Positions 16,506 to 32,542 of a stretch of DNA of 64,000 nt are shown piece by piece. The stretch spans positions 2,564,891-2,628,890 of the forward strand of contig JBFWNU010000001.1 in NCBI GenBank assembly GCA_050250895.1, given 5' to 3'. The DNA is from Vulcanimicrobiota bacterium. Lineage in GTDB: Bacteria > Vulcanimicrobiota > Xenobia > Xenobiales > JADMJV01. The stretch's first letter is position 1. Each line of letters begins with the position of its first letter. Below the pieces are notes generated by a model that saw nothing but the letters and a program-made list of their open reading frames with translations, had not been told where the DNA came from and did no database searches. A program made the translations under genes and the position numbers.

Positions 16506-16870
16506 GGATCCTCTACCAGGGCGTCCTCGAGGATCTCCTCGTAGGCCTCCTGAACGGCTCGAACTTCCTGCTCGATGAGCCTGGCCCGGTCGACCAGAGC
16601 GCGCAGCTGGTCGGCGGGCAGTCCCTCTTCAAAGCCGATCGAGGCCGCCTCGAGCACCTCGGTCATGGCCTCGAGGGCCGAGCGCAAGGTCTGCCAGGCC
16701 TCGAGTTCGCGGGGGTCGTCGGGGCCGGGTCTGAGCTGCTCGACCCCTTCGCGCCAGATGGCCAGACTATCGTCGAGACGGCCCAGGCGTTCGGTCAGCT
16801 CGACCGGTCCCGCCTGGCCGGCCAGATAATCCTCGACCACGCGCGCTAACTGGTCGGCCGGGCCTAGCAT
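16502..16870 (-). CDS. hypothetical helical protein (122 aa)
   Basis: ATG at 16870 (MLGPADQL) overlaps the stop of the upstream regulator; only this 3' part of the listed 350-aa ORF looks coding. Confidence 0.65.
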   Translation of the reverse strand: MLGPADQLARVVEDYLAGQAGPVELTERLGRLDDSLAIWREGVEQLRPGPDDPRELEAWQTLRSALEAMTEVLEAASIGFEEGLPADQLRALVDRARLIEQEVRAVQEAYEEILEDALVEDP

Positions 16871-19149
16871 TTGAGCAGGGCCTTCTGATGCGCGCGCAAG
16901 AGGTCGATAGACGGCTCGACGCCCAGTTCCTTGTGAAGCAGCTTCTTGCAGGCCTCGAACTGGCGGATGGCCTCTTCCGGAAAGTTCAAGTCGACGTTGG
17001 CCTCGACTACGTAAAGGTAGGCCTCCTGGCTGCAGGGGTCGAGTTCGAGGGCTCGCTGGGCATAGTCGAGGGCTTCGAGCGGCTGGCCCGACTGGTGGCC
17101 GTGGCGGGCCAGAGTGATGAGGGCATGCAAGAGCAACCTCTCGACGCGACTGCGCCGGTTGAGGGCCCAGTCCTCGTAATAGCCGTCGAGGTAGGGGCCT
17201 CGATAAAGCTCGGCCATGCGACGATAGGCCCGCAAGGCCGACTCGGGAGTGCCCTCGCGTTCGTAGCGGGTGGCCAGAGTCGAGGCCTTGTCCAGCTCGT
17301 CGAGATCGTGCCAGAAGGGCAGGTCCGGGTTGAATTGCAGGCCGGCCCGGGTGCGCACCAGATAGTTGAGCTCCTCCTTCCAACCGGTCGGACGCAAGTT
17401 GGCTCGCAAGTGAGAAAGGGTGGCCGACAGGTTGCGGCGGCCCCTTTCGAGGTCGTCGGGCCAGAAGGTCTCGAGCAGGATCTCTTCGGCCACCGGGCGG
17501 CCCGAGTGCGAGGCCAGAAAGGCCAGGAAATAGCGGACCTTGTTGCTCTTCCACTGGGTGTTTTCGATGCGCTCGTCGCCGCGAAAGACCTCGAGGGAGC
17601 CCAGCGAATAGACGCGCAGATAGGGCGGGGTGGCCGGTCCGCTCTGCTCGAGACTCTGGCGGGCAGCCTGACGGACCTCTTCGTCGGAATCAAGCGACAG
17701 GTGGCGCAGGGCCTCTTCAGGCCAGTGTCCACCCCAGGGGTTGAGCAGGCGGGCGGCCAGGCGCCGGCCGCGGGTCGAAATCTCGCCGGCCATGATCAAA
17801 CCGTGCAACTCGCGGGGAAACTCTCGCACCAGCAGCTTCAGGTTGTCGTCGTCGGCGGCGGCGTCGGCTTTGAGGTCGAGCAGAAGCGGCAGCAGCCAGC
17901 CCACCGAAGCCTCCAGCTGGCGCAGCTGAGCGGGCGTCACCAGCAGGCTGACGGCTCGGGCCATGGTCTCGGCCGGGACCTCATCGCCCAGCTGGGCTAG
18001 ATTGAGTTGGGCCCGGGCCTGCAGACTGTCGAGTCCGAGGTTGGCCGCCAACTGGCCGGCCCGACGAGCCAGCTCGACGGCCTCGGAGCGCTGGGCTCGA
18101 CCCAGAATCAGGCTGGCGTCGAGAGCGATCTCGCTCTCGGTCTGCGGTCCCAGCGCGGCCGAGCGCTCGACCGCCTGATGGGCTAGCTCGGCCGCCCGGT
18201 CGGGTTGGCGCCGGCTTAGTTCGAGGCGGGCTAGACCCAGTAAGCCTTCCACTGCCAGGCGTGGGCTCTCGCCCTCCGCCAGCTCTTGAAAGCTGTGGGC
18301 GGCGCTATCGAGTTCACCCGCTTGTTCCAGGGTGCGAGCCAGAGAGAACAGGCTTGGTCCCGTCTTGGGGGGCCGGCTGGCCGGCACCGCATCGTCGTCG
18401 TCAGCCCGCTCCAGAGCCTGAGCCACGGCCGGGCTGGCCCCTTCCCTGGCGTCGTTTAGCACCACCCAGGCGAGTTCCAACTCCGGGTCGCCCGGAGGCT
18501 CGCTCTGGCTCAGGCCTCGCACCCAATGGAGGATGGTGGGCGGCAGGCCTTCGAGCAAGAAAGGTGGCGTCTCGAGCCCGGCTTTCTGAACGGCGGCGAT
18601 CAGATAGGCCAGTCGCAATTGGTCCGAGGCCGCCGAGCCCAGCTTTTGAGCGGCGCGGCCCACCAGACGCCCCGACTCGGGCAAACTCGAGCCCTGGGTA
18701 ACCACCGTCTGGGCCAGCGACTCGATAGCCCAGGCGGCGGTGCGCTGAAGGGCCCGCTCGCGTTGCTGCACCTCGAGGGCATGCTGGCGCTTTTTGGCTT
18801 GCTTTTCGACGGCCTCGAGAAAGACCTTGATTTGAAAGGGCTTCTTGAGATAGTCGCCCACTCCCAGGCGAATGGCTCGGATGGAATCTTCTTCGGTGGA
18901 GTAACCGGTGATGACCAGGCTGCCAATGCCGGGGCGATGGCCCTGCACCCCTTCCACCGCGGCCAGACCGTCCATTCCTTCCATGCGCACATCGGCGATC
19001 ATGATGTCGAAGGGATCGGCCCGGGCTGCTTCGACAGCCGCCGCCCCCGACCCCACCGCGGTCACGGCGTAGCCGTTGAGACCCAGAGCTTCGGCCAGCA
19101 ATCCCCGCATCGTGTCATCGTCTTCAAGCAGCAGAATCCGAATCACCAT
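16864..19149 (-). CDS. response regulator with REC, TPR/HEAT-like repeats, winged-helix and BTAD (SARP/AfsR-type) domains
   Basis: ILLLEDD...ADVRMEGMDG...KPF; LRVYSLG...W...NLSATLSHLR wHTH; LYRGPYLDGYYEDW BTAD. Confidence 0.92.
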   Translation of the reverse strand: MVIRILLLEDDDTMRGLLAEALGLNGYAVTAVGSGAAAVEAARADPFDIMIADVRMEGMDGLAAVEGVQGHRPGIGSLVITGYSTEEDSIRAIRLGVGDYLKKPFQIKVFLEAVEKQAKKRQHALEVQQRERALQRTAAWAIESLAQTVVTQGSSLPESGRLVGRAAQKLGSAASDQLRLAYLIAAVQKAGLETPPFLLEGLPPTILHWVRGLSQSEPPGDPELELAWVVLNDAREGASPAVAQALERADDDDAVPASRPPKTGPSLFSLARTLEQAGELDSAAHSFQELAEGESPRLAVEGLLGLARLELSRRQPDRAAELAHQAVERSAALGPQTESEIALDASLILGRAQRSEAVELARRAGQLAANLGLDSLQARAQLNLAQLGDEVPAETMARAVSLLVTPAQLRQLEASVGWLLPLLLDLKADAAADDDNLKLLVREFPRELHGLIMAGEISTRGRRLAARLLNPWGGHWPEEALRHLSLDSDEEVRQAARQSLEQSGPATPPYLRVYSLGSLEVFRGDERIENTQWKSNKVRYFLAFLASHSGRPVAEEILLETFWPDDLERGRRNLSATLSHLRANLRPTGWKEELNYLVRTRAGLQFNPDLPFWHDLDELDKASTLATRYEREGTPESALRAYRRMAELYRGPYLDGYYEDWALNRRSRVERLLLHALITLARHGHQSGQPLEALDYAQRALELDPCSQEAYLYVVEANVDLNFPEEAIRQFEACKKLLHKELGVEPSIDLLRAHQKALLKC

Positions 19150-19199
19150 TCGCGTTTTGACTTGGACGGCATGGCTTCCTGTTCAATGTTTACATTTGA

Positions 19200-19252
19200 T
19201 TTACAACTGGCCGGAGCGACACAACAGACTCACAGCCCGAGCCTCGTAGGAT
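19200..19252 (+). promoter_or_regulatory. regulon promoter copy 1
   Basis: TTTACAA-N12-ACACAAC-agac-TCACAGC-N10-TAGGAT; the same geometry recurs at three other sites. Confidence 0.75.
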
Positions 19253-19308: not shown

Positions 19309-19626
19309 ATGGATGTTAAAGGAGTAGGTTTTGCGTTCGAGGCGAGCATGGGCATCGGTCAGGGTCAGGGACTCAAAGGGTTGGACGGTCCCAATCGCGC
19401 TCCCGAGGGTCACGGCCCCTGCAAGAGCCACCACGGTAAGGGCAATCAGAAGGGGGGCGGCGCCGACAAGATTCTCAAAGCCGTAGCCAAGTTGCTGCAG
19501 GCCGTGGCCGGAGGGGCCGGCGGCGAGGGTGGCGGCAAAGGCTGCGGTTGCAGCGGCGGGCAACTCGGTGGAGCCCCGGGACTGGCCGGTGGAGGCATCG
19601 GGCGGGCCAACCCGTTCCTGGGTTAA
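19309..19626 (+). CDS. small Gly/Lys-rich protein (105 aa)
   Basis: AAGGAG and GAGG upstream, own promoter and terminator. Confidence 0.75.
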   Translation: MDVKGVGFAFEASMGIGQGQGLKGLDGPNRAPEGHGPCKSHHGKGNQKGGGADKILKAVAKLLQAVAGGAGGEGGGKGCGCSGGQLGGAPGLAGGGIGRANPFLG

Positions 19627-19635
19627 GCACAGTTG

Positions 19636-19665
19636 GGGCGGGAGAGACTCTCTCCCGCCCTTTTT
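19636..19665 (+). terminator. intrinsic terminator
   Basis: GGGCGGGAGAG-act-CTCTCCCGCCC followed by TTTTT. Confidence 0.9.
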
Positions 19666-19684
19666 GAGCGGTTAGGAGGGACCG

Positions 19685-20521
19685 ATGGCGACCATGATTC
19701 AGGCCCTTTATGCGGCCTATGGCGGCGAGGAGCACGACGTTCCCCAGGGCAGCTTGCCGCGTTTGTTGGCGCTGGTTGAAGACTGGCTCGAGGGCAAAGG
19801 CGAACGGGAGGAGTTGCTGGGTGCGCTGCAGACTCAACAGGCCGAGCTCGTGCGAGCGGCCCGCCAGACGGTCGTTCAGCCACACCTCGACCCGGGTCTG
19901 GCCGAACTCTTGGGTTTTCAGAAGGAAGTCTTTGAAGAATTGGCCTCCAGCGTCGAGGACTTGCGCTCGGCCGTGGTCTGTCTGGACCCGGCTCTGATCG
20001 AGAGCCAGGCCGCCCGCTTAGAAGACGGGGTGGCCGCCCTGCGAGAGGTGACTGACGAGCTTCACCAGTGGCAAAACACGGGCCAGGTTCGTTGTCTTCG
20101 TTGCGGTCGCGAGGGTTTGGTGTGTCCCCACTGCGGTCTGATGGGATTGGTGGCTGATCTCGAGTGGGAAGGCCGCGAGCATGAGACCGGCCAGCTGGGT
20201 CGGGTAGGAGGCCACCTCTATCGTACGTTTCAGGCGGTGTTAGAAGGAAAGTCTTGCCTCACCAGGTTGCTGCATCAGTTGCAGAGCCTGGAGCCCGAGC
20301 TGGCTCAGGTCGCCCAGCTGGCCACCGAGTGGTGCGGGCAAGAGGCTCTGGCCGACGAGATTCTGGCCGATTTGGTGGCAGTGGAGGACGGCCTGGCGCG
20401 GATGGCGGCCTGCGCCCAGACTCGTCGCTTGACGGATCTGGCGATCGGTTGGGAACTGTTCTTTCGGGCCTGGCGAGACCTGCAGGCGCGCTTGTATCCG
20501 AGCCTGGCCCTGGCCAGTTAG
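19685..20521 (+). CDS. hypothetical helical protein with a central CxxC-x6-CxxC zinc ribbon
   Basis: AGGAGG RBS; RCLRCG...VCPHCG. Confidence 0.75.
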   Translation: MATMIQALYAAYGGEEHDVPQGSLPRLLALVEDWLEGKGEREELLGALQTQQAELVRAARQTVVQPHLDPGLAELLGFQKEVFEELASSVEDLRSAVVCLDPALIESQAARLEDGVAALREVTDELHQWQNTGQVRCLRCGREGLVCPHCGLMGLVADLEWEGREHETGQLGRVGGHLYRTFQAVLEGKSCLTRLLHQLQSLEPELAQVAQLATEWCGQEALADEILADLVAVEDGLARMAACAQTRRLTDLAIGWELFFRAWRDLQARLYPSLALAS

Positions 20522-21555
20522 AAGTTGCTCAACAGCTGAGCGGTGGGCAACACCGCCGCCAGGAAGAGAAAGGCCGTCAGACTACCCAGGACCGTCATCA
20601 TCAGGGGCTCGATCAGAGCTGTGGCCGTGGCCAGAGCCAGGTCGAGCTCCATTTCGTAAAGGGCGCAGGTGGTTCGGCTCATGGCCGCCAGGGTGGCTGT
20701 CTCTTCGCCGGCTTTGAGTAGCCCGGCCGGAATGCCGCCCAGCAGTTCGCATTCGACGATGGCCTCGCCCAGCCGCTCCCCGCCTTCGACCCGTTTGCGG
20801 GTGGCCATCAGTTGGGCGGCCACCACCCGATTACCGGACGCCCGCGCGGCCAGTTCTAGCGAGCTGAGCACATCGACTCCGGCCGACAGGCAACAGCCCA
20901 GCACGTAGAAGACTCTCACGGCCACGGTCTTGCGGGTGACGATAGACAGGCCCGGGGTCGAGAGCAAAAAGCGATCCCAGACCAGGCGCACGGCCGGACT
21001 GACCAGCCACTCTTGCAGGTAGGGGCCACAGCTCAACAGGAAGACCGGAATGGCCACCAGTTGGACCAGAAACAGTGGATGGCGTAGGATTTCTCCGACC
21101 CAGACCAGCAGACGCGTGGCCAGGGGCAACTGCAGGCGCAGCGACACGAACAGCTCGTTGAGGGCCGGCATGACGAAGGTCACGAAGGTCAGGGTGGTGA
21201 GCAAGAACGAGGCTACCAGGATGGCCGGATACACCATGGCCGAGGACAGCTTGCGGGCCAGCTCGGCCTGGCGTTCTTCGAGCTGGGCCAGGCGTTCGAT
21301 CATGCCCACCAGGGTGCCCGAGCGTTCACCGATCTCGAGCAGGGCGGTATAGGTGTCGGGAAAGACCTGGGGGAGCTCGCGCATGGCCCGCGACAGAGGC
21401 TGGCCCTGGCGCACGCGCAACGCAAGCAGGTCGCTGGCCTCGGTGAGTTTGGGACTCGACTGGCCGGCCAGGCTCAGCGCGTCTAACAGCGGAACACCGG
21501 TCCGCAGCATAAACGACAGCTGGCCACTAAAGACCGCCAGACCCCTCCGATCCAT
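20518..21555 (-). CDS. type II secretion / type IV pilus platform protein (GspF/PilC family)
   Basis: GVPLLDAL, GERSGTL, AMVYP, GEETATL and LIEP duplicated T2SSF domains. Confidence 0.92.
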   Translation of the reverse strand: MDRRGLAVFSGQLSFMLRTGVPLLDALSLAGQSSPKLTEASDLLALRVRQGQPLSRAMRELPQVFPDTYTALLEIGERSGTLVGMIERLAQLEERQAELARKLSSAMVYPAILVASFLLTTLTFVTFVMPALNELFVSLRLQLPLATRLLVWVGEILRHPLFLVQLVAIPVFLLSCGPYLQEWLVSPAVRLVWDRFLLSTPGLSIVTRKTVAVRVFYVLGCCLSAGVDVLSSLELAARASGNRVVAAQLMATRKRVEGGERLGEAIVECELLGGIPAGLLKAGEETATLAAMSRTTCALYEMELDLALATATALIEPLMMTVLGSLTAFLFLAAVLPTAQLLSNF

Positions 21556-21631: not shown

Positions 21632-24043
21632 TTGCAGACCTCGACCTCGTCACGATTGTTGCCGCTGGCCCTTTTGGCCTGTGCTGGTGGGTTGCTGGGC
21701 CTGGCCAGCGCCAACCCCCAGCCGGAACCGGCCTTGCTGGCTTTGTTGGCCGTGGGATGCCTGGCTCTGGAGGCGGCCGCTGCCAGCCTCGGCAATCTCG
21801 GTTTCGTGAGCGGGGCGGGAGCCTGCTATCTGGCCGCCGCTTTGAGCCCCCAGGTGGGGTATGGCTGGGCTTTGCTGCTCAGTCTGGGCGCTCTGGGTTT
21901 GCGCACCCTGCTGCGCGGGCAGGGACAGGGTAGCTGGCGGGTGATGGAGGGGCTGGTCGATTTGGTGCCGGTGACCCTGGCCTGTCTGGTTGGTTTGGGG
22001 CTGGGTTGGCTCTGGGCCAGTCCTCCAGCCTGGGCCGTGGCCCTGATTGTGCTCGAGGTCTATCTGCCCGCTGCCCTGGGTTTGCCCGGCTTGCTGGCCG
22101 CCGGACTGCCGCTAGAAGAGCGACCTTATTGGGCTCGCTGCCGGCGGGCGGTCACCCCGTTGGTGGTGGCCTCCGCCTTTCTAGGAGTGGCCGGGGCCAA
22201 GCTTTCCGGTCTGGGGCCCTGGCAGGTGCTCTGGATTGCTCCCGTGGCCGTCGCCCTGGCCACCCAGGTGGCCCGCAGCCTCGACGAGGTCGAACTGGCC
22301 GACCGCCAGACCCTGGCCGCCGAACTCGAATCGGTTCGTCGGGGCAAGGCCCGTGAGCAGGCTCAGGGCGACCGTTTGCGGCGCGAACTGCAGTCGAAGG
22401 TCGACGAGTATCTGGTGGTCGAGGAGTTATCGCTGGAACTGGCCGGCAGCCACACTGTCGACGAGTGCCTGGCGGTAGTGCTCGAGAAGCTGGCTCACAC
22501 GGTGGACTGCCAGAGCCTGGCTATCTTCGTTCCCGAGGACGAGCAGCTCGTGCCTTTGCGCTTTCGCAGCCCTTTTCAGACCCAATTGGCCGAGGCGCGC
22601 CTGCTGCGCAGCCGCGAGCCGCTGGTGGAGCAGTGCCAGCAAAGCGGTCGCCTCGAGACGCTGGGCCTGCCTGAACCAGCCGAGCGCCTCTTTCCTGGCG
22701 AGACGGTAGCGGTGGCCTTGCCCATCGAGGGTTTCGGCGTACTCTATGCCGGTCGTCGAGGCGATCCTTTCGGCTCCGAGCAACTCCGGCTGCTGGTCAT
22801 CGCCGCCACCCAGACCTCGGTGGCCGTTCGCTCGGCCTCGCGCCTGGAGTCTCAGCAACAGGCCTTGGATCTGCTCGAGCAGGCCAATGCCCGACTGGAG
22901 GAATGGAGCGGCGGATTGGCCCGTCTCATCGAGGGCACCCGGCTGGCGGCGGTGGCGCTAGACCCGGACGCTTTGCTTGAACTGTTGCCCCAAGAAATCG
23001 CCAAGCTCGCCCCTCACCACAGTCTGGTGGTGCTCACCCGCGACCGACGAGGGGCCGAGTACGAGCATCTCAGCGAGTTGATCCAGGCCGTAGGCGAGGG
23101 GGGTCGGCCGCTGCGCTTCGACGATCTCGAAGGGGCTCGTTTCGCCCCCATCAGCCAGGGGGAACGCAGCCTGTTGGCCATCCCTTTTGACGAAAGCGGG
23201 ATGTGGTTGCTGGGCCATCGCCAGGTGGGGGCCTTCGGTCAGGATCAGCAAGACCTGCTGGTGCTGCTGTCCTACCAGGCCGGAGCGGCCCTGCAGACGG
23301 CCCGTGCCCACAAGGAAACCACCGAGGCTTATCGGCTCTTGCAAGAGTCCAAGGCCCAGCTGTTTCAGTCGTCCAAGATGGCCGCCGTGGGCCAGCTGGC
23401 GGCCGGCGTGGCGCACGAACTCAACACCCCCCTGGGTAGCACCATCCTGGCCATCGAGGCGGCCGAGATGTTCATGGAGATGAGCCCGGATTCGGCCCGC
23501 GACAAGCTCTCCATTGCCTTGCGCGAAGCGCTGCGAGCCAAGGAGATCATCCACAAGATGCTTTACTATTCTCGCGATGCTCGTTACGGAAGACGCAGCG
23601 TCGACCTGGGCAAGGTCATCGCCGACACCCTCGGGCTCAACCAGCATCAGTTTTCCCTTGACGGCATCGAACTCGCCTCCGAACTGCAAGACGTGCCCAC
23701 CATCCATTGCAACGAAAACGAGATCCAGCAGGTCTTGCTCAACTTGCTGCTCAACGCTCGCGACGCTGTGGTCGGGCGCCCCGGAGCCCGGGTGGTGCTG
23801 GCCACCCGCCAGCAGGGCGACCGGGCTATCCTCGAGGTGCGTGACAACGGTCCCGGCATTGGCGAAGAGGAGGCCGAGCGTATCTTCGAGCCGTTTTTCA
23901 CCACCAAGCCGGTGGGCCGAGGCACCGGCCTGGGCCTGTCGGTGAGTCGTCAGATTGTCGAGAGTCACCAGGGCGAGCTGGTGTTGGCCGAAACCTCGCC
24001 GACGGGCAGCACCTTTCGAGTCAGTCTGCCCCTCAACGATTAA
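21632..24043 (+). CDS. membrane-bound GAF-GAF sensor histidine kinase
   Basis: Multiple TM segments, two GAF-like regions, [35 protein letters not shown]; start set at TTG after AAGGAG. Confidence 0.92.
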
Positions 24044-24109: not shown

Positions 24110-25027
24110 ATGCGACCCATCAGCCATTTTCTTCACCGAGCCCACCGATCTCATCGTCATTCCAGCCGGCTCTCTCACCTGTTGGGCGGCTTTCGCGGCC
24201 TGCTGAGCCGCTGGCGCGGCCAGCAGCAGCCCACCCATCCTCTGTCGGCGGGCCAGCCTCGCTTTGGTCAATCCCGCCAGCCCCAGACCCGGCAGCCCCT
24301 GAACGATTTTCTGGGCGGCCAGACCGAGCCCTCACGGCCCAGTGGGCAGACCCGCGAGCAGGCCTTTCGCCAAAACATCGTCAAGGCGGCCGAACAGGCC
24401 GGGGACGGTTGGGCTTTCACACCCAGTCCCACCCCCCAGTTGCGCGATGACCGCGGCCGCTTGGTGGAGGGCAATGACTATTGGGAGTTGGCTCGCCAGG
24501 ACGACCATCAGGTGCTCAAGCTGCGCCAGGGCGCCGACGCCAGTCAGGCCGTCGACGATCTCTTCGAAAACAAGCAGCGTTACGCCCTCGACTGCGCCAC
24601 GGCCATCCGGGCGCTCGGTCTCAAAGCCGAGCTCGACACGGTCGGTCGAGACGACTTTTCGAACGCTCATCAAGACCTGAGCCTGTACGGCCATTATGAC
24701 AGCTTTGACCACAGCTTCGACAGCGGCGCCTGGGACATCACCGCCGGGCCCAGGATAGACTACGGGGCAGGCCCCGAGTTTGGTCGCTTCGACTCGAGCA
24801 ACGACCAGCTGGTGGCCGGCGATCTTCGTTACTTCGAGCACCCTGGCGATACCACCACGGCCAACCAGGGATGGAACGCCCTCTACCTTGGCCAGGACGA
24901 AAACGGTCAGGACCGTTTCTGGCGCACCGCCGGGGGAGCCTTCACCGGCGGCCTCGAGGGTCATTATCTTTCCAATCTGCGAGGGGTGCCCGATGGCGAT
25001 CAGTTGGCGGCCGTCGACCGGACCTGA
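24110..25027 (+). CDS. Tgl-like protein-glutamine gamma-glutamyltransferase (transglutaminase)
   Basis: AVDDLF...YALDCATA (catalytic Cys) and GDLRYFEHP...QGWNALYLG match the recalled Bacillus Tgl pattern YAFECATA / GD-x-x-YF-x-NP...GEN-x-x-x-LG; GGAGGT RBS. Confidence 0.75.
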   Translation: MRPISHFLHRAHRSHRHSSRLSHLLGGFRGLLSRWRGQQQPTHPLSAGQPRFGQSRQPQTRQPLNDFLGGQTEPSRPSGQTREQAFRQNIVKAAEQAGDGWAFTPSPTPQLRDDRGRLVEGNDYWELARQDDHQVLKLRQGADASQAVDDLFENKQRYALDCATAIRALGLKAELDTVGRDDFSNAHQDLSLYGHYDSFDHSFDSGAWDITAGPRIDYGAGPEFGRFDSSNDQLVAGDLRYFEHPGDTTTANQGWNALYLGQDENGQDRFWRTAGGAFTGGLEGHYLSNLRGVPDGDQLAAVDRT

Positions 25028-25039: not shown

Positions 25040-25423
25040 ATGAGGTGTCGGGGGTATAACCTGCTGGAGTTGGTGGTGGCTATCTCCATCATGGGCACGC
25101 TCATCGCCTTCATTGCACCGGTTTGGCCAGCCTCCAAGCGCACGGTGCTGCTCTCGGGTGACGCGGCCGCCGCCTGGCAGGTGGCCTCGAGCGAACTCGA
25201 AGCCACCCTGGCTCAGGGCTACGACGCCATGGCCGACCGTGACGGCGACGCCACCCGCTCGATGGTGGCGGCCGGGATCGAACGTTCCATCACCTATCTC
25301 TACGAGGTGCGCATCACCGACCTGCCGCCCGACATGCGGCGAGCCCACGTGACCGTCGTCTGGAACGACGGTCGCGACAATCACGAGGTCCAAGTTGAGA
25401 CAACCCTCACCGACCCCAACTAG
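25040..25423 (+). CDS. minor pilin/pseudopilin (PilV-like)
   Basis: Prepilin cleavage motif RG|YNLLE followed by a hydrophobic helix. Confidence 0.85.
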   Translation: MRCRGYNLLELVVAISIMGTLIAFIAPVWPASKRTVLLSGDAAAAWQVASSELEATLAQGYDAMADRDGDATRSMVAAGIERSITYLYEVRITDLPPDMRRAHVTVVWNDGRDNHEVQVETTLTDPN

Positions 25424-25997
25424 AGGCACCACCCTGGTCGAGGTGATGATCGCTTCGGCCTTGTTGCTATTGGTGATGGTCGGGCTGACCACCGTGTTCG
25501 TGGGGGCCTATCGCTATCAGCGGGCCACCACCTATCTCACCGAGGTGCAGAGCCAGAGCCTGTTGGCCACCTCTGCCGTTACCCGAGAACTGGCCGAAAG
25601 CAGCGCCGGCAGCGTCCGCATCGATTCGGCTCCGATGGGCATCGTGTTCGGTTCTCCGCGCGGGGTCGACGGCGCCCTGCTGCGCGATGCCGAAGGCAAC
25701 CCGCTGTGGCGCAAGCTAATCTGTTTTTACCTCGATACCATGAACGGCATCCCGGTGCTGGTGCGCAAGGAAGAGCTGCTGGCCAGCCCCGATACCAATC
25801 CGCCGGTGGTGCTACCCACCCAGGGCACGGCCTACTTCCAGGGTCTAGATGTTCCCCGCGAAGTGGTGGCCCGGCATGTCACCGGGTTCACCGTCTCAGG
25901 CACCAACCCCGTGGCTCTCGAGTTTGAGGTCAGTCGCTCGGACGGCCCTCGCCTCTTTGCCATCACCAATCAAATGCGGGTGCTGTTGCGAAATTGA
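25395..25997 (+). CDS. minor pilin/pseudopilin (PilW-like)
   Basis: RG|TTLVEVMIA prepilin motif. Confidence 0.85.
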   Translation: MRQPSPTPTRGTTLVEVMIASALLLLVMVGLTTVFVGAYRYQRATTYLTEVQSQSLLATSAVTRELAESSAGSVRIDSAPMGIVFGSPRGVDGALLRDAEGNPLWRKLICFYLDTMNGIPVLVRKEELLASPDTNPPVVLPTQGTAYFQGLDVPREVVARHVTGFTVSGTNPVALEFEVSRSDGPRLFAITNQMRVLLRN

Positions 25998-27211
25998 GCA
26001 GACGACGACAGATACAAGGCATCGGCCTGGCCATGGTCTTGATGGTGGGGCTGGTGTTGGCCATCCTGGCCGGCAGCACCCACGCCCAGGCCCTTTTCGG
26101 CTTGCGCCAGACCAATCGCTACGGAGCCAACCTCGAGGCGCGCTACGCCGCCCAGGCCGGCTTTCAAGTCGCCCTGAGCGAACTCAAACGCGACGAGAAT
26201 TTCGCCGGTCCGGTGGATGGCTCGGCCAGCTACGACCCTCGCCTGACCTATCACGTCGAGGTGCTCAACAATGCCACCGGAGTCAATCCCCTTCCGGCTC
26301 CCGACGGGAGTTTCGTGCCCCCGGGAGCGGTCGCCCTGACGGCCACGGCCGGACGCTCTCCCCAGCTGATCGTGATGAGCGCCCTGGTGACTCGGGAGGG
26401 CAGTGCCCCTCCCTTCCAGGCGGTTTTCGCCTCGAGCGGCATCGATATGTCCATGTCTAGCACCATTCGTCCCTGGGGCTCGGTGGCCGCTCCCATCCAG
26501 ATCGGCACCAACGTGGTCGGGGGCGGCGACATCGAACTGTCCATGAACTCCGAGATTCAGGGCGACGTCTTGTTGGGGCCGGGCGGCGACCCGGCCACCG
26601 CCGTCGATCTGGCCATGGGCTCGAGCATCAGCGGCAGCATCACCGCCGCAACCACGGCCACGGTGCTGGCCCCTCAGGCCCCGCCGCCGGTGACGCCTCC
26701 GCTTGCCTCGGTCGATGTCTCCATGGCCGACAAGCTCGCCATCCCGCCGGGAGCCTACAGCAGCATCGACGTTTCGACCGGCTCGCAACTGACGCTCAGC
26801 AGCGGCGTCTATTATGTCGACCACGACTTCGAACTTTCGTTGGGTACCTCGCTAAAGTGCGACATCACGGCCGGTCCGGTCGAACTGTATATCGGCGGCG
26901 ATTTCGACGCGGCCAGCAACTCGCAGATCAATGTGGCCGGCCCGCCCGACAATCTGCGGGTCTATCTGCTGGGCTCGAGCCCCGAGGTCGAGTTGAGTTC
27001 GAACTCGACCGCCCATATGGTTGTGTATGGGCCCGGCGCATCCCTTGATATGTCCACCAACTCGACGCTCATCGGGGCTTTCGTCGGTGACCGCATCGAG
27101 ATGAGCATGAATTCCAGGCTACTCTTTGATACCAGCCTGGCCGGCTCGACCCCGGCTACGCCCGGAAACGGGCGCTGGATCCTCTCCAGCCAAAAGGTTC
27201 TCTCGCAATAG
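25994..27211 (+). CDS. PilX-like protein with a C-terminal beta-rich domain
   Basis: RRRQIQG|IGLAMVLM lacking E5; ARYAAQAG motif; repeated SMNS/STNS strands. Confidence 0.8.
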   Translation: MSRRRQIQGIGLAMVLMVGLVLAILAGSTHAQALFGLRQTNRYGANLEARYAAQAGFQVALSELKRDENFAGPVDGSASYDPRLTYHVEVLNNATGVNPLPAPDGSFVPPGAVALTATAGRSPQLIVMSALVTREGSAPPFQAVFASSGIDMSMSSTIRPWGSVAAPIQIGTNVVGGGDIELSMNSEIQGDVLLGPGGDPATAVDLAMGSSISGSITAATTATVLAPQAPPPVTPPLASVDVSMADKLAIPPGAYSSIDVSTGSQLTLSSGVYYVDHDFELSLGTSLKCDITAGPVELYIGGDFDAASNSQINVAGPPDNLRVYLLGSSPEVELSSNSTAHMVVYGPGASLDMSTNSTLIGAFVGDRIEMSMNSRLLFDTSLAGSTPATPGNGRWILSSQKVLSQ

Positions 27212-27213
27212 TG

Positions 27214-27266
27214 TTAACATGGCCGGGCGGGACCACAACAGGTCCACAGCCCTGACCTCCTACAAT
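27214..27266 (+). promoter_or_regulatory. regulon promoter copy 3
   Basis: TTAACAT-N12-CCACAAC-aggt-CCACAGC-N10-TACAAT. Confidence 0.78.
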
Positions 27267-27293: not shown

Positions 27294-28664
27294 ATGCAGA
27301 TTCCCACCAACGCCAACCACAACTCGATCCAGTTTCGCATGGTCGCTTTTAGCTTCCAGTCCAACCCTACGCCTGCCGTCGGTTCCAGCGACGGCTGGGG
27401 CAAAGGCTGGTCAGGGCGGACCGGTCGCGCCCTGGGCGGCCTCGAACTGGCTCGTCAGTTCTTGCAGGGCGGCCAGACTCGCCCCGACCTCTCGGGCCTC
27501 AGACAAGCCCTCGAGCAGCTGGGTCGCGGGCTAGCCGATTTCGCTGGCTCGTGTCACTGCTCGCACTCGGCTGCTCGGCCCAACCAGGCTCCGCCGGCCA
27601 ACGACGCGCCAACGCCGAACCAGGCGCCGAAAGCCAACCAGGCTCCCGCGGCCAACCACGCGCCAGCGCCGAACCAGGCGCCGCCGGCCAACTGCGCCCC
27701 CGCAGCCAATCAGGCTCCGGCAGCCAATCAGGCTCCCGCGGCCAACGACGCGCCCACGCCGAACCAGGCGCCGAAAGCCAACCAGGCTGCCGCGGCCAAC
27801 CACGCGCCAGCGCCGAACCAGGCGCCGAAAGCCAACCAGGCTCCCGCGGCCAACCACGCGCCAGCGCCGAACCAGGCGCCGAAAGCCGACCAGGCCCCGG
27901 CCGCCAACTACGCCCCGGTGGCCAACGAGGCGCCCAAGCCCAAGGCCGTCCCCTATCAAGAGCCCGAGCAGACGGGCAAGACCTGGGATGTCTGGTTTGA
28001 CCACCGCGACGGACAAGAGACCGACCGCCGTTCCCCCATCGTGCTTGACCTCAACGGCAACGGCAAAGCCGATATCACCGGCCAGAACGTGCTGGGCGAC
28101 GGCAAGATCACGGGACCGACCACGAAGTTCGATATCGATCCCACCCGCAACTCATATGAATACAAGAGCAACAGCGAAGCCCGCCGCAAGCTGAAAGACC
28201 GGGCCAAGGGCGAGGGCGGACGCTGGGAAGGCGACAAATACTACGGCCGCTCTGACAAGGTGCAGGGCGAGCTCAAATCGGACGGCCTCTATCACTACGG
28301 CAAAGTGGAAGAGCGCGAAGAGACCGAGTGGCTGGCCAAAAATGGCGGCGACGGCTTCTTGACCTGGGACGTCGACGGCAATGGCAAGATCGAGAGCAGC
28401 AAAGAACTCTTCGGCGAGTTCGATGTCGACGGAACCAAGAAATACTCTCACGGCTATCAGAAGCTGGCCGAGCATTTTGACGCCGACCATAACGGAGTGG
28501 TGGCCGGAGACGAACTGGCGGGCCTGACGGTATGGAAAGACGGCAATGCCGATGGTGTTACGCAAGAGGGTGAGCTTCTTGGCCTGCAAGAACTGGGCAT
28601 CACCTCGTTTGACGTGTCCAACATCAACCAGGCCGATATGAGCTCATCCTACACCTATCGCTAG
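27294..28664 (+). CDS. hexapeptide-repeat protein with a C-terminal EF-hand-like (SPIVLDLNGNG) Ca-binding domain
   Basis: AGGAGG RBS before ATG 27294; DVDGNGKIESSKELFG, DADHNGVV and DGNADGVTQEGEL loops. Confidence 0.85.
   Translation: MQIPTNANHNSIQFRMVAFSFQSNPTPAVGSSDGWGKGWSGRTGRALGGLELARQFLQGGQTRPDLSGLRQALEQLGRGLADFAGSCHCSHSAARPNQAPPANDAPTPNQAPKANQAPAANHAPAPNQAPPANCAPAANQAPAANQAPAANDAPTPNQAPKANQAAAANHAPAPNQAPKANQAPAANHAPAPNQAPKADQAPAANYAPVANEAPKPKAVPYQEPEQTGKTWDVWFDHRDGQETDRRSPIVLDLNGNGKADITGQNVLGDGKITGPTTKFDIDPTRNSYEYKSNSEARRKLKDRAKGEGGRWEGDKYYGRSDKVQGELKSDGLYHYGKVEEREETEWLAKNGGDGFLTWDVDGNGKIESSKELFGEFDVDGTKKYSHGYQKLAEHFDADHNGVVAGDELAGLTVWKDGNADGVTQEGELLGLQELGITSFDVSNINQADMSSSYTYR
27582..27941 (+). 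repeat. coding tandem repeat, 20 x 18 bp (N-[Q/D/H]-A-P-x-[A/P])
   Basis: Units such as NQAPKA, NQAPAA, NHAPAP and NDAPTP, with higher-order periodicity. Confidence 0.92.
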
Positions 28665-28685
28665 ACACAGGTGAGGGACTCAGAT

Positions 28686-28717
28686 GGACCGGGAGGACCC
28701 CGGTCCTCTTTTTTTTT
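28686..28717 (+). terminator. intrinsic terminator
   Basis: GGACCGGG-aggac-CCCGGTCC plus a T-run. Confidence 0.9.
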
Positions 28718-28733
28718 GCCGCGTCGAGAAGGC

Positions 28734-28760
28734 AAAAAAAAGGACCCCGCCATGGGGTCC
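28734..28760 (-). terminator. intrinsic terminator of the minus-strand small ORF
   Basis: GGACCCC-atggc-GGGGTCC followed by T8 on the minus strand. Confidence 0.88.
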
Positions 28761-28789
28761 AGGCACGCGCTGGGTCGACGGCGCGGCCG

Positions 28790-28924
28790 TCAGGCCGCTG
28801 TGGCCGGAGCCAGTTGGTATTGCCGAGGCTGAGAATCTTCGCGAGCCGTAACCAGATTGGTCTGGTTGGGGGTCTCGTTGGAAAAGGTCACACTGACTTG
28901 CATCAAGATGGTGGGACTGTGCAT
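28790..28924 (-). CDS. unannotated 44-aa peptide MHSPTILMQVSVTFSNETPNQTNLVTAREDSQPRQYQLAPATAA
   Basis: TAGGAGG RBS, regulon promoter upstream and its own terminator downstream. Confidence 0.7.
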   Translation of the reverse strand: MHSPTILMQVSVTFSNETPNQTNLVTAREDSQPRQYQLAPATAA

Positions 28925-28958
28925 CACGACTTCCTCCTAAGTTTTCTTGCTTGCCCTG

Positions 28959-29011
28959 ACTATAGAGGAGTGGTGCTGTCGAACTGTTGTGGGTGCCGAG
29001 ACGGTTGTAAA
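28959..29011 (-). promoter_or_regulatory. regulon promoter copy 4
   Basis: Minus strand TTTACAA-N12-CCACAAC-agtt-CGACAGC-N10-TATAGT. Confidence 0.78.
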
Positions 29012-29027
29012 CAGTGTGGGCCGTGAA

Positions 29028-29170
29028 ATGAAAGACCCGCGATTGCTCGCGGGTCTCTGAGGTCCGTATGGTCATCTATGAGAGCGGGCCAGGTCCACGC
29101 CAATTTCCCCGGCCCGCGAGACACGAGGCTGATGTGCAGGAGGGTCAGTTTCTCGTGTCCGCTGTATGTG
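29028..29170 (-). ncRNA. putative sibling sRNA copy A (about 143 nt, three hairpins, anti-SD loop)
   Basis: -10 TATTCT (29176-29181); hairpins GACACGAG/CTCGTGTC with loop CCCTCCTGCACA and GCGGGCCGGG/CCTGGCCCGC; terminator GACCCGCGA/TCGCGGGTC-TTT. Confidence 0.7.
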
Positions 29171-29252
29171 CCCTTAGAATACCGGGCCGAGGTTGGCCAC
29201 ATGTTGGAAGCGCAGACCGGGTGCGACAAAACGGTTGCCGGCAGGTAAAATC
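29028..29252. repeat. 225-bp direct repeat, copy A (partner at 30883-31107)
   Basis: Seven mismatches counted between copies, none inside the predicted RNA. Confidence 0.95.
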
Positions 29253-29277
29253 GGGAGAAGAACTGGAATTGATCAAG

Positions 29278-30238
29278 ATGGAGGACGTCCTCTTCGAAGC
29301 GGTCGCCGGTATCACGTCTCTCTTGCCGCAGGTGGACAGCGCGGTTCTTTTCGGGGACCGCCAGACTCGCCTGGTTTTGTCAGACAAGGCCGAGGCTTTC
29401 GAAGGGAAGCGCCTGGATACGCGCTGGCTAGAAAGCCTGCGTGAGCCGGTGGTGTTGGACGAGCCTGTGGTCGAGAGCGAGCCGTCGGCCTTGCTGCTGC
29501 CCCTGGTCCACCGCGACATCCCCCTGGCGGTGCTCTACCTGGGCGCCTCGACGCCCCAGGCCTTTAGCGCTGCCCATCGGGTGGTGGCCAGCCTGCTGAC
29601 ACCAACTCTGGTCTTGATTCTGAGCGAACAGTGGGCTCAATATTCCGACGCCCTGACGGGGCTCTACAGTCATAGCCTCTTCCAGCAGAAACTGTCCGAC
29701 GAGTTGGAGTGGTGTCCACACCCATCTGCGCGAGAGCTGTTTCGGCCTCTTCGAGATTGACCATTTCCGACGCCTCAATGATGCTTTCGGTCACCTGCGC
29801 GGCGATGAGATCTTGCTCGAGATGGCCCGATTACTGCGGAGCCAGACGGGCCCCAATGACCTGGTGGCTCGCTGGAAAGGCGACTGCTTCGCGGTTTGCT
29901 TTCGCGAGCAGGGTCTCGAGCGAGCCCTCGAGGTCTGCGAGAAGATTCGTGACCAGGTGGCCAGAGACTTTGGCGGGCGAAGACTGACCTTGTCGATTGG
30001 GCTAGGCTTGGGCCCACCCTTCGGGTCGAGACCGGCCCTGGTGGCTGCCGTCGAGGATGCCCTACGCCGGTCCAAGCAAGGTGGCGGAGACCGGCTTACA
30101 ATAGCTGACGGAAGAGACGGCGCGGGGCGTGGGGCCCGGTTGCCCCGTGGTCCGAAGGGCCCGACCCCGGCTTCAGAACGCAGGCGACTCGAGGATGAAG
30201 GCGAGGGAGGCGGGGCACCTAGCCCATCTCGGCGGTGA
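29278..30238 (+). pseudogene. frameshifted GAF-GGDEF protein with a degenerate active site (KGDCF)
   Basis: DALTGLY in one frame continues as FEIDHFRRLNDAFGHLRGDEILL in another; shift near 29716. Confidence 0.75.
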
Positions 30239-30842
30239 AGAGGTAGCGCTTGCCGCGCAGTTCGAGCTGGTCGCCGAGCGCAAGGGCCACCGGCGAGTCT
30301 TTTTCGACCGGGCAGTACCACACGTTCTCGCTGATCAAGCGTACGACCTTGGCCTCGGCAAACTCGCCTCGGGAAATGACTTCGTAGTGTTGGCGCTCGC
30401 TGTTCCAGGCGACTTCGACCAGAGGGCTGATGGCCCGCGGCTTGGTGCGATTGAGGTAAAAGTTGTCCTGGTCGGGGCTGGTGAGTAAGTGGCGGGCCTT
30501 GCGTTCGCCGGTGGGTAGCCGCACCTCGCGCCGGACCAGTCGCATCACCGTTTGTCCCACGGCGATAAGGCACTCGCTGGTGAGGGGAATCTCGCCGCTC
30601 ACTTCTATCTGGTTCACCCGGGTGGGGTTGGTCTCGGAGATGTGGCGCAGCTTGAAGAAGCTTCGGTCGGGCATCCAGTCGAGGTCGAAGTGGTGGCGCG
30701 AGACAGTCGGGTCTTCGAGTAGCAGCCAACCGTAAAGACGAGCCCCCGGCATGGCCCGGCCCACACACAGCAGTCCGGGCTTGAGTTCGATGCTCTGGCG
30801 CGGAGCGGGACTCTCGATGAAATCCAGGGCCCAACCGGTCAT
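30219..30842 (-). CDS. FHA-domain protein
   Basis: VGR...DPTVSRHH...SETNPTRVN FHA signature. Confidence 0.85.
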   Translation of the reverse strand: MTGWALDFIESPAPRQSIELKPGLLCVGRAMPGARLYGWLLLEDPTVSRHHFDLDWMPDRSFFKLRHISETNPTRVNQIEVSGEIPLTSECLIAVGQTVMRLVRREVRLPTGERKARHLLTSPDQDNFYLNRTKPRAISPLVEVAWNSERQHYEVISRGEFAEAKVVRLISENVWYCPVEKDSPVALALGDQLELRGKRYLFTAEMG

Positions 30843-30882
30843 GCGGCATGATTCCTGGTCTTGCGTCCCGTAGCCTTTAAAG

Positions 30883-31025
30883 ATGAAAGACCCGCGATTG
30901 CTCGCGGGTCTCTGAGGTCCGTATGGTCATCTATGAGAGCGGGCCAGGTCCACGCCAATTTCCCCGGCCCGCGAGACACGAGGCTGATGTGCAGGAGGGT
31001 CAGTTTCTCGTGTCCGCTGTATGTG
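30883..31025 (-). ncRNA. putative sibling sRNA copy B
   Basis: Body identical to copy A; promoter TTCCAAC-atgt-GGCCAAC-N10-TATTCT (-10 at 31031-31036). Confidence 0.7.
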
Positions 31026-31105
31026 CCCTCAGAATACCCCGGTGCGGTTGGCCACATGTTGGAAGCGCAGACCGGGTGCGACAAAACGGTTGCCGCCAGG
31101 TAAAA

Positions 31106-32542
31106 TCAGTCCAGCGGGAGCAACAAGAGCCGGACGGGGGCATAGCTGTTGGTGGTCAGGCGGTGCTGATAGCGAAACGGGCCGGCGCCGCGATGGAGAA
31201 CCCGGCCCTGGAACGCGTAAAGACCGTCGGCCCAGCCGCCGGTGGGAACCAGGACCACCATACTCTCCCCGCTCAGCTGGAGTTCGACCTCGGTCAGGGC
31301 GCCATAGTTTCCGACCAGGGTATCGTCACCGTTGCTCAGCCAGTTTCGGTCCAGGGTGAGCAAGCGGGGTCCGTCGGCGGGTGAATAGGTGGCTCGCAGT
31401 CGCCGGTCCGGGGCCAGAAACAGGCCTCGAGACTGACCTCCCGTGCGTTCAGCCAGGGGACCGTCTAACTGGCTGTCGTCGGGTTTGGTCAGGCACAGGC
31501 GATAGTCGAGGGGTCCACTCGAGGCCAGCTCGAGCATGAGTCGGCCGTTGCTAAGACCCATTGGAAGGCGGGTGATGAACTGGTGACCCGGGGCCAGTTC
31601 TAGCTGGTCGGGCCAGACCGGGTCCCAGGCCTGGGTCATCCCAGGTTCGCTCGCCTCGGCCCGGGGTCGGCATTCGAGGCGGATGGGAGAGTCGCTAAAG
31701 TTGGTTAGAATGGCAGCCAGCTCGAGGTGGCGGCCCGTGGTATTGAAGTGAGAAGCGTAGAGACGTCCGCGCCCGGCCGGGAGTGTTTGCTCGAAGAGGA
31801 CCAGGCGGTCAGATTCCAGGCGCCGGATGTTCTCGGGATTGTTGCTGTAAGCCAGCCATTTCGGTTGGTCCAAAGGCTCGAGCCTGGCCTCGAGCTCGGG
31901 GATGGTGCTCGAATGGAGGTGGCCCGACTGCCCCACCAGTGAAGCCACCTTCCGAGCCGATAAGGGGCCGCCGAAAGGCAGGCCGGCCAGGGCCGCCAGG
32001 CAGAGCAGGGCCAGCCATCCGGGGTGGGTCCATTTGAGGCTGGCCAGGGCCAGCAGCAGGCCTGCTGCTCCTAGCCAGAAGGGCGAGAATTCGAGCGAGG
32101 GAACGAAGAAGAGCGGATTGGCGGGCAAGGCCCAGGGGGCCGTGCGCAGCCAGCTGGGAGTGGCCATCTCCACCCCTCCCTGTAGCAGCCAACCCGTCGC
32201 GATAAGAGTCAGACTGGCCCAAACCCGCGCTCTGGCCAGCAAGGCCAGGCCGGCGAACAGCAGCGGCAGCCAGTTCGAGAGCGTGTCCTGACCAAAATAG
32301 TGCTGGGCGGCCCACAGATTCGAGACCAGTGCAGCCATCGCCGCCCCAGCCACCAAGGGCTCTAGCTCGACCAGCACCAGACTCAGACCCAGCAGGTGGG
32401 CCATCGTCAGCCGAGCGCGCAGCCAGGGGTTGTGGGCGTGGAACAACATGACGGCGGCCAGGATACAGCCGACTAACAGCAATACCCGTCTGGTTTTGGC
32501 GTCTTGGCTCAAGGCCGGCAAGAGCCAGAAGCATAGGCCCAT
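31106..32542 (-). CDS. hypothetical multi-pass membrane protein with a soluble C-terminal domain
   Basis: Several N-terminal hydrophobic segments; may be 5'-truncated at the island edge. Confidence 0.7.
   Translation of the reverse strand: MGLCFWLLPALSQDAKTRRVLLLVGCILAAVMLFHAHNPWLRARLTMAHLLGLSLVLVELEPLVAGAAMAALVSNLWAAQHYFGQDTLSNWLPLLFAGLALLARARVWASLTLIATGWLLQGGVEMATPSWLRTAPWALPANPLFFVPSLEFSPFWLGAAGLLLALASLKWTHPGWLALLCLAALAGLPFGGPLSARKVASLVGQSGHLHSSTIPELEARLEPLDQPKWLAYSNNPENIRRLESDRLVLFEQTLPAGRGRLYASHFNTTGRHLELAAILTNFSDSPIRLECRPRAEASEPGMTQAWDPVWPDQLELAPGHQFITRLPMGLSNGRLMLELASSGPLDYRLCLTKPDDSQLDGPLAERTGGQSRGLFLAPDRRLRATYSPADGPRLLTLDRNWLSNGDDTLVGNYGALTEVELQLSGESMVVLVPTGGWADGLYAFQGRVLHRGAGPFRYQHRLTTNSYAPVRLLLLPLD

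Follow-up and report, generated by a model that had tools for sequence, protein, structure and literature searches.

Which protein controls a group of promoters that are all built to one plan, and can its targets be read from the DNA? This question is raised by a 64,000-nt stretch of a contig from a Vulcanimicrobiota bacterium (assembly GCA_050250895.1, contig JBFWNU010000001.1, positions 2,564,891 to 2,628,890; hereafter, the window), in which four promoters, P1–P4, lie around the genes of a response regulator with a DNA-reading module of the SARP type (16864-19149) and of a sensor histidine kinase (21632-24043). SARP activators are the textbook regulators of antibiotic clusters in actinomycetes. 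The module stands here behind a receiver (REC) domain, and it is found in a phylum that is known almost only from metagenomes. Our analyses favor, with moderate confidence, the reading that P1–P4 are a local regulon under the control of this regulator and kinase, in which SARP-type activation operates at tandem repeats that replace the −35 element.

Four promoters of one fixed geometry

The four promoters are as follows.

19189-19252, + strand: promoter P1, with the distal boxes TTTACAT (19189-19195) and TTTACAA (19200-19206); the 53-nt site is 19200-19252
Proximal part of P1, + strand: repeats ACACAAC (19219-19225) and TCACAGC (19230-19236), −10 element TAGGAT (19247-19252)
24040-24092, + strand: promoter P2, TTAACAT-N12-CCACAAC-N4-TCACAAC-N10-TAGGCT
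27214-27266, + strand: promoter P3, TTAACAT-N12-CCACAAC-N4-CCACAGC-N10-TACAAT
28959-29011, − strand: promoter P4, TTTACAA-N12-CCACAAC-N4-CGACAGC-N10-TATAGT

A first-pass annotation of the window had described these sites as sharing one exact geometry, and this observation is confirmed: its 53-nt pattern has exactly four matches (64,000 nt, both strands, up to three mismatches), and none of 100 shuffles yielded a match. As the pattern had been built from P1–P4, tests that did not reuse those sites were run. In a leave-one-out analysis with a weight matrix of three sites and all 53 columns, the held-out site ranked 4th among 127,894 positions, right behind the three training sites, and the held-out sites reached 25.3–27.6 bits versus at most 10.9 bits for the next best position. 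The alignment of P1–P4 contains 19 invariant columns at fixed spacing, and its center is a pair of tandem direct repeats with the consensus CCACAAC(A), 3 nt, YSACARC, at a period of 11. With TAnnnT taken as −12 to −7, the repeats lie at about −40 to −33 and −29 to −22, and a ribosome-binding site and start codon follow 17–56 nt after TAnnnT at every site. P1 is divergent from the regulator gene, the distal box of P2 overlaps the kinase stop codon, and P3 starts 3 nt past the stop codon of a DUF7305 gene. All four sites are within 10 kb of the regulator, and no site with a CCACAAC-type word is present in the other 54 kb of the window. It had also been claimed that these four promoters and two small RNA (sRNA) promoters next to them have no consensus −35 element, and a sigma-70 consensus scan agreed, as no canonical −35/−10 promoter was found at any of the six. 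We propose that P1–P4 are sigma-70-type promoters that possess a −10 element (TAnnnT) but would, in place of a −35 element, use tandem direct repeats of 7–8 bp; their transcription start sites are predicted from the position of this −10 element.

Could the likeness of the four sites simply be a relic of duplicated DNA, devoid of regulatory meaning? A true duplication is indeed present nearby, as the neighboring sRNA units lie in a 225-nt repeat. However, identity among P1–P4 is 86% in box columns (129/150) and 29% in spacer columns (49/168), which is the background level; it is thus the individual boxes that are kept alike, and a recent duplication is not the source of the similarity. Moreover, the flanks cannot be aligned, and every site is in register before a gene start, so that we attach hardly any weight to this idea. 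When 430 TANNNT-anchored windows were compared with each other, nine pairs matched at 16 or more of 22 box positions, six of them among P1–P4 and three inside the 225-nt repeat.

Another thought is that the common sequence represents the recognition pattern of an alternative sigma factor and not an activator site. Features that are common outside the repeats would be in line with this, as many promoters of the regulator family described below have a −10 element of the TAnnCT type that is followed by GAG. The distances of 21 and 10 nt from the repeat ends to TAnnnT do not fit two-element recognition, there is no GG-N10-GC at these sites, and words that are repeated at period 11 and change between clades agree better with a dimeric winged-helix protein. 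Alternative sigma factors of the extracytoplasmic-function type and sigma-54 were rejected for P1–P4 on the basis of the spacing, and recognition by an alternative sigma factor in general appears very improbable.

The regulator and its candidate kinase

Three genes of the locus are central to the proposed regulation.

16864-19149, − strand: response regulator, 761 aa, with REC (5-114), TPR-like region (~120-520), winged helix (~541-589), and BTAD (615-756)
21632-24043, + strand: sensor histidine kinase with a polytopic membrane N-terminus (~215 aa), GAF, HisKA, and HATPase
20518-21555, − strand: PilC/GspF-like (T2SSF) membrane protein, 345 aa, Pfam T2SSF 3.4e-42

Among the 22 open reading frames (ORFs) of 11.8–33.2 kb, the regulator is the sole protein with a recognized DNA-binding domain. 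Its description in the first-pass annotation as a SARP-type protein of REC-wHTH-BTAD architecture is substantiated by Pfam matches to REC (77.6 bits) and BTAD (67.3 bits, cut-off 22.1), with Trans_reg_C at 24.9 bits being under its cut-off of 26.2, and by the match of a 40-member family profile (positions 525–777) to the SARP domain of AfsR (PDB chain 8hvr_I, residues 39–282, E=2.8e-19). The winged helix aligns with DNA-binding domains of the OmpR/PhoB family, whereby RRNLSATLSHLR aligns with their recognition helix, and winged helix and BTAD together constitute, as judged from homology, the SARP module of the regulator. In the REC domain, D53 and K103 are invariant and D10/D11 almost invariant among 40 family members, which is the acidic pocket plus lysine of two-component receivers. 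For the middle region of about 400 aa, there are only leads toward a TPR-like fold, and some family members show HD_5 matches in this long insert. Homologs have about 700–800 aa and come nearly all from metagenome-assembled genomes (MAGs) that are named Eremiobacterota, Vulcanimicrobiota, Xenobia, or, by an older label, Armatimonadetes.

The best comparison is AfsR of Streptomyces (PDB 8HVR), and we rely here on those passages of the structural study that deal with the promoter complex (PMC10936776). According to these passages, the direct repeats of SARP promoters have a distance of 11 or 22 bp, and 8 bp separate the 3′ repeat from −10; the afs box extends from −40 to −19, and contacts are made to the first 8 bp in each of its 11-bp repeats. 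P1–P4 resemble this arrangement, as period-11 tandem repeats with a conserved first 8 bp cover the missing −35 element at about −40 to −19, and the annotation's notion of SARP repeats 11 bp apart over the −35 region agrees with these rules. The gap to −10 differs, being 10 nt if counted from the 7-mers or 9 nt if counted from the 8-bp part, compared with 8 bp in the published rule, and this comparison depends on the chosen register. The C-terminal winged helix and BTAD of the regulator match the SARP domain of AfsR at the sequence level, and the regulator, like AfsR, is encoded beside its probable targets. In contrast to AfsR, which has C-terminal NOD/TPR domains and is regulated by Ser/Thr phosphorylation, the regulator described here has an N-terminal REC domain, a TPR-like region of about 400 aa, and a histidine kinase as likely input; it belongs to an Eremiobacterota-like phylum and not to Actinomycetota, its promoters have an extra distal box at −59/−70, and there is no biosynthetic gene cluster. 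No biosynthetic enzymes were detected among the ORFs scanned in the window, and the nearest relatives come from MAGs of Eremiobacterota, Vulcanimicrobiota, and Xenobia, so that this is not an antibiotic-cluster activator of the actinomycete kind, although domain order, repeat period, and the missing −35 element place it in the SARP family at the sequence level.

PhoB/OmpR-type regulators are likewise two-component proteins with a winged helix that can be aligned and with tandem repeats that replace −35. They have about 230 aa, and the pho box lies 10 bp from −10, whereas the regulator of the window has 761 aa, contains a BTAD, and has about 400 residues between its REC and DNA-binding domains. 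The same three domains in the same order are found in proteins that carry the JGI label ‘two-component SARP family response regulators’, including several homologs, and which we take to correspond to COG3947; the long TPR-like insert, in some cases with HD_5 matches, distinguishes the present family from these. In our literature searches, we found no description of promoters or functions of REC-TPR-SARP regulators, and the passages of PMC11484240 that came up concern metabolism.

Which kinase could address the regulator? The coordinates of the GAF kinase had been given correctly in the annotation, and its start is TTG 21632, preceded by GAAGGAG. Evidence for a partnership comes from one profile search of genome contigs with a family alignment as query, in which at least 80 loci were listed; the comparisons between loci concern these. 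Of them, 27 contain a full-length family member, one more (L019) is of the family type but was matched in its REC part only, and 52 are REC-only loci. A long kinase homolog, defined as an alignment of at least 500 residues that starts by query residue 350 of the 896-aa ORF, occurs in 17 of the 27 family loci, in 12 of which it is within 150 nt of the regulator gene. T2SSF homologs are likewise present in 17 of the 27; kinase and T2SSF occur together in 11 loci, and neither in 4, while the 52 REC-only loci include 2 with T2SSF and none with a long kinase. The kinase tree reproduces the clades of the regulator tree, even for paralogs of one genome, whereas the T2SSF tree does so for shallow clades only. 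The mirrored trees and the common adjacency therefore support the GAF kinase as a cognate, conserved, and co-diversifying partner of the regulator, in keeping with the annotation, which had already paired the two; this is a genomic association.

The PilC-like protein appears to be a recurrent third member of the kinase–regulator module. It matches GspF/PilC models at 1e-52 to 1e-56, which is under the cut-offs of those models, and among 61 window ORFs scanned there was no T2SSE-type assembly ATPase and no prepilin peptidase. The type IV pilus/type II secretion set is thus incomplete in the window, consisting of T2SSF and two weak prepilin-type N-termini.

In the proposed mechanism, the membrane-bound GAF kinase would phosphorylate the REC domain of the regulator, and each of the two repeats would then be occupied by one C-terminal SARP module; this adjacent pair would recruit RNA polymerase and thereby substitute for recognition of a −35 element, as in the ‘sigma adaptation’ of AfsR; by this analogy, we assume activation rather than repression.

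Promoter words and distal boxes in related loci

Does the geometry of P1–P4 recur with other regulators of the family? In the listed loci, each TANNNT was taken as an anchor if a ribosome-binding site and an ORF (40 codons or more) came within the next 110 nt, and 7-mer direct repeats with at least 6/7 identical positions were counted at periods of 8–14 and gaps of 3–18 nt (repeat end to TANNNT). The 326 anchors of the 27 family loci show a peak at period 11 and gap 10 (7 anchors, with 5 each at gaps 9 and 11), compared to a mean of 0.4 and a maximum of 2 over 95 other period/gap cells. In the REC-only loci that served as controls (51 from other phyla; L034, from a Xenobia MAG, was left out of the control set), 1 of 797 anchors is at period 11/gap 10, and the profile is flat. 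The geometry recurs in loci of the family, and the words are different from locus to locus. The word of the window has no true match in the listed loci, with only two matches at 2 mismatches in unrelated contexts. Words at such sites are as follows.

L001: GGTTGAG/GGTTGAT, three sites, of which two are good and the third has a degenerate −10
L007: GGTTAAG/GGTTGAA
L006: TGTTCTC/TCTTCAC, with counterparts in L005 and L009
L010: TGCAAAG/TGCAAGG, divergent from the kinase–regulator pair
L025: CTTTCAG/CTTTCAC and TTTTCAG/CTTTCAT
L026: GTTTTGC twice, in two promoters
Window, 39469-39543, + strand: fifth promoter, with a distal TTAACAA, the word pair TCGCCTC/TCGCCCT, N10, and TAAGAT; it precedes the orphan gene 39575-40579

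The different word of the fifth promoter implies a second regulator of the REC-TPR-SARP family elsewhere in the genome. Two side observations concern the listed loci. The duplicated promoter of L026, whose GTTTTGC repeats are combined with a TATTCT that is identical to the −10 of the sRNA promoters of the window, precedes genes for paralogous His/Gly-rich proteins of 124–147 aa (12362-12805 and 18841-19215, both on the − strand). In L003, a 40-nt tandem repeat (1-273; 6.9 copies, 94% matches) lies directly upstream of the regulator gene and contains TAGGCT- and TATAGG-like words.

The words follow the regulators in two clades. In a quick IQ-TREE analysis of 28 regulators, in which branch support is SH-aLRT only, the regulators of L001 and L007 form a sister pair (SH-aLRT 100), and GGTTGA-N5-GGTTGA is present in both loci despite different downstream genes. 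Those of L005, L006, and L009 form another clade (SH-aLRT 100) with a common TTCTCC-N4-nTTCAC in an orthologous promoter that follows closely on the 3′ side of the regulator gene; the boxes and −10 of this promoter are conserved and its spacers variable. The recognition helix is identical inside each of these clades and different between them, and this comparison supports the view that sister regulators have both word and recognition helix in common. The family as a whole contains at least 39 different recognition-helix 6-mers among the 62 parsed of 93 proteins, and the SATLSH helix of the regulator of the window is common to 6 proteins that are only 45–59% identical overall.

It could nevertheless be that CCACAAC/YSACARC is read by a different winged-helix regulator, whose gene is located somewhere else in the 3.95-Mb genome, and that the adjacency of P1–P4 to the regulator gene is incidental; a paralogous REC-TPR-SARP protein or a regulator of the OmpR/PhoB type could fill this role. 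Relatives do have several paralogous modules per genome, as evidenced by L002, L005, L010, and L048, which all come from one MAG, the fifth promoter is 20 kb from any such regulator, so that targets need not adjoin their regulator, and L002 exemplifies a regulator without nearby sites. This has to be set against the clustering of all four sites within 10 kb of the regulator gene, against the loci L001, L006, L009, L010, and L026, in which the sites frequently adjoin the gene of the regulator or of the kinase, and against the joint occurrence of word and recognition helix in two clades. On balance, we judge control by such an outside regulator to be unlikely, but it is the most serious of the alternatives.

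Several further points weigh against control by the neighboring regulator and kinase. L002, the only locus of a sister regulator with SATLSH among those listed, is devoid of sites over 10 kb in both directions (best 5.7 bits) and has neither a kinase nor a PilC-like neighbor. L013, L014, and L017 have the helix of L015 (NSAVSS) but not its word, and the similar words of L012 and L025 (CTTTCA) disagree with the tree, in which their regulators are not sisters. The genome of the window and the closest homologs of its regulator (59% and 48% identity) are outside the listed loci, the best of which reaches 46%. Kinase and regulator genes are 2.5 kb apart on opposite strands, unlike in most family loci. 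Since a single phylum supplied all family loci and other phyla supplied the controls, a phylum-wide promoter habit that is served by other winged-helix regulators could also explain the geometry; the same-phylum DNA far from such regulators that was covered amounts to about 50 kb of the window itself. Despite these points, control by the adjacent regulator is the reading that we prefer.

A separate issue is the distal box. In the 28 family-type loci (the 27 plus L019), 86 TTWACWW boxes were tested for their gap from the TTWAC end to TANNNT, and peaks were obtained at 41–42 nt (7 boxes) and 52–53 nt (10 boxes), with a background of about 0.4 per gap. With the start of the box as reference, TTWAC[AT] has maxima at 47 nt (5 boxes) and 57 nt (11 boxes), compared to a mean of 1.44, and GGCAA[TCA] has one at 47 nt (15 boxes versus 3.81), with flat controls; these counts are partly non-independent, as there is hardly any difference between L005 and L006 and as L026 contains a duplication. 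A TTWAC box at those distances is present in 17 promoters of 13 loci. The common layout is (G)TTWACA-N4-TTWACA or GGCAAT-N12-word-N4-word-N10-TAnnnT, often followed by GAG, with the TTWACA box at about −59 and, in P1, at −70 too. The annotation had included TT(A/T)ACA in the motif of the regulator, and this part has to be abandoned, as the distal box is not specific and occurs at fixed distance in loci of many clades. Its presence across clades suggests that another factor binds there, and the constancy of the distal boxes, together with the variation of recognition helices, leads us to assign them to a common factor, probably either the C-terminal domain of the RNA polymerase alpha subunit (alpha-CTD) or a global regulator. 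What makes the alpha-CTD a candidate is its contact with SARP in the solved complex, as stated in the passages of PMC10936776 mentioned above. The TTWACA box may thus be part of a promoter chassis that is common to all clades of the regulator family. In P1, TTTACA occurs twice, 11 bp apart (19189, 19200) and 40–57 nt from the start codon of the regulator gene on the opposite strand, and a factor at these doubled boxes could affect the expression of the regulator as well.

One may ask whether the roles are swapped, such that REC-TPR-SARP regulators bind the distal TTWACA/GGCAAT boxes, while the proximal repeats have another reader or represent promoter-specific spacers. The distal boxes are tandem at period 11 in P1, L007, L015, and L026, and they are family-wide, as are the regulators. 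Yet, the recognition helices vary strongly between clades and the distal boxes do not, paralogs in one genome need distinct addresses, and the SARP position in the solved complex corresponds to the proximal repeats and not to the distal boxes, as far as the cited passages of PMC10936776 describe it. We therefore regard an exchange of roles as quite improbable and retain the proximal repeats as the likely address of the regulator.

Probable target genes, small RNA units, and surroundings

What would be controlled by P1–P4? The following genes lie behind them.

19309-19626, + strand: P1 gene, 105-aa Gly-rich protein, no family match
19685-20521, + strand: P1 gene, 278-aa protein with CxxC...CxxC, no family match
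24110-25027, + strand: P2 operon, Tgl-like transglutaminase, Pfam TGL 1.6e-21
25040-25423, + strand: P2 operon, prepilin-type N-terminal protein 1, TIGR02532 21.7 bits, over its cut-off of 16.3
25395-25997, + strand: P2 operon, prepilin-type N-terminal protein 2, N_methyl under cut-off
25994-27211, + strand: P2 operon, DUF7305 protein, Pfam DUF7305 2.6e-18
27294-28664, + strand: P3 gene, 456 aa, (APxANQ)n followed by a C-terminal part with DxDxDG-type motifs
28790-28924, − strand: P4 gene, 44-codon ORF with AGGAGG in front and a terminator behind

The local regulon would accordingly consist of two small orphan proteins (P1), a transglutaminase, two prepilin-type proteins, and a DUF7305 protein (P2), a repeat-rich protein with motifs of the calcium-binding type (P3), and a 44-aa peptide (P4). 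The annotation had regarded the targets as orphan genes, which holds for the P1 proteins but not for those of P2. The codon-position GC pattern was used as evidence for the P1 transcription unit 19309-20521. Both prepilin-type proteins score 17–19 bits with N_methyl, under its cut-off. The start of the P3 gene was corrected to ATG 27294; its (APxANQ)n part is encoded by an 18-nt tandem repeat (27580-27934, 19.7 copies, higher-order periods 54 and 144), the protein has weak EF-hand matches under the cut-off, and no similarity was seen between it and the NolX-like protein behind the L010 promoter. A terminator region for both strands lies at 28686-28760.

In the other loci, ORFs behind such promoters mostly encode small Gly/His/Cys-rich or repetitive proteins without family matches, and further targets are a NolX-like protein (L010), a clostripain-family protease (L025), and a PLD-like protein (L012). 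L[KRG]GL occurs within the first 70 residues of 7 of 23 target ORFs (5 if orthologs are counted once), compared with 50 of 2,955 background ORFs; such N-termini are found in the window (19309-19626, 27294-28664, and, as FRGL, the Tgl-like 24110-25027) and in L005, L006, L007, L009, and L010. As this motif was picked after viewing the alignment, it is a lead only. Together with the PilC-like partner, it may hint at a dedicated export or assembly route.

Do the sRNA units next to P4 belong to the same regulon, as had been proposed? They lie in a 225-nt direct repeat (29028-29252 and 30883-31107, 97% identity).

29030-29252, − strand: repeat copy 1, with TTTTACC, GGCAACC, TGTCGCA; TTCCAAC, GGCCAAC; −10 TATTCT at 29181-29176; structured RNA of ~140 nt with terminator hairpin
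30885-31107, − strand: repeat copy 2, the same unit as copy 1, 46 nt upstream of an FHA-domain gene
30219-30842, − strand: FHA-domain gene, a real gene on that strand

The variant TTCCAAC-ATGT-GGCCAAC-N10-TATTCT that had been reported for both copies was found at 29176-29209 and 31031-31064 (− strand), and TTTTACC, GGCAACC, and TGTCGCA stand at period 11 upstream of these repeats. About 140 nt behind each TATTCT fold better than all 200 shuffles (z = −4.3), with a terminator hairpin at the end. Rfam 15 gave no match at gathering score in the window, the one match at E≤1 in 28600-31300 is at chance level and outside the sRNA units, and there are no homologs of the sRNA in the listed loci. The copies differ at 8 of 227 positions, 5 of which are in the 10-nt spacer between repeats and −10 and none in the transcribed part; the chance of such clustering in the spacer is 2.8e-6, and it fits a promoter whose sole unconstrained stretch is that spacer. 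By their layout, we treat the sRNA promoters as members of the same promoter class as P1–P4. The word is not clearly shared, as they score 9.6 bits on the P1–P4 matrix (rank 9–10 in the window, versus 31.6–33.6 for the four sites), and their repeats have CAAC and CARC as in P1–P4 but not the A that is invariant there. Control of these promoters by the regulator 16864-19149 is thus conceivable but, in our judgment, rather doubtful. As copy 2 lies 46 nt before the FHA-domain gene and no other promoter is found between them, it may serve this gene as a terminating leader, the alternative being a free sRNA.

The ORF 29791-30849 (− strand) was dismissed as a gene, as it is in the wrong frame, with inverted codon-position GC and an Arg/Pro/Ser-rich translation. 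A GAF-GGDEF gene (29270-30238, + strand) has a degenerate active-site motif and a frameshift near 29700-29760, and a sigma-70-like GCGACA-17-TAAAAT at 29223-29251, inside repeat copy 1, faces it. Farther away, the flanks 3494-9590 and 32663-39269 look like accessory or defense DNA: one contains an AAA_21/AbiEii-like ATPase, a DUF4276 protein, and a NurA-like protein, and the other an integrase fragment, an IrrE/HTH protein with DUF4411, and zinc-ribbon proteins, with GC falling to 54–60% at 32–38 kb.

A wider reading, which we put forward tentatively as a whole and to which we give less than even weight, is that a module consisting of a GAF kinase, a REC-TPR-SARP regulator, and a PilC-like protein is present many times in each genome of Xenobia-type Eremiobacterota, that all modules use one promoter chassis with the distal TTWACA/GGCAAT at about −70/−59, and that each has its own 7-bp address at −40/−29, matched by a private recognition helix. 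The module outputs would be small Gly/His/Cys-rich or repeat proteins, often with an N-terminal L[KRG]GL, and our results also point to a link that connects two-component signaling with an orphan protein of the PilC type and with families of small proteins of low complexity. What appears to be new is SARP-type activation under two-component control at a composite promoter in an almost uncultured phylum. It is very likely that the targets of this regulator can be read from the DNA, and the sequence alone suffices to name probable ones. Provided that the address-plus-chassis rule is true, it would permit regulator–target maps for uncultured bacteria without experiments, and it would provide a set of mutually insulated activator/promoter pairs.

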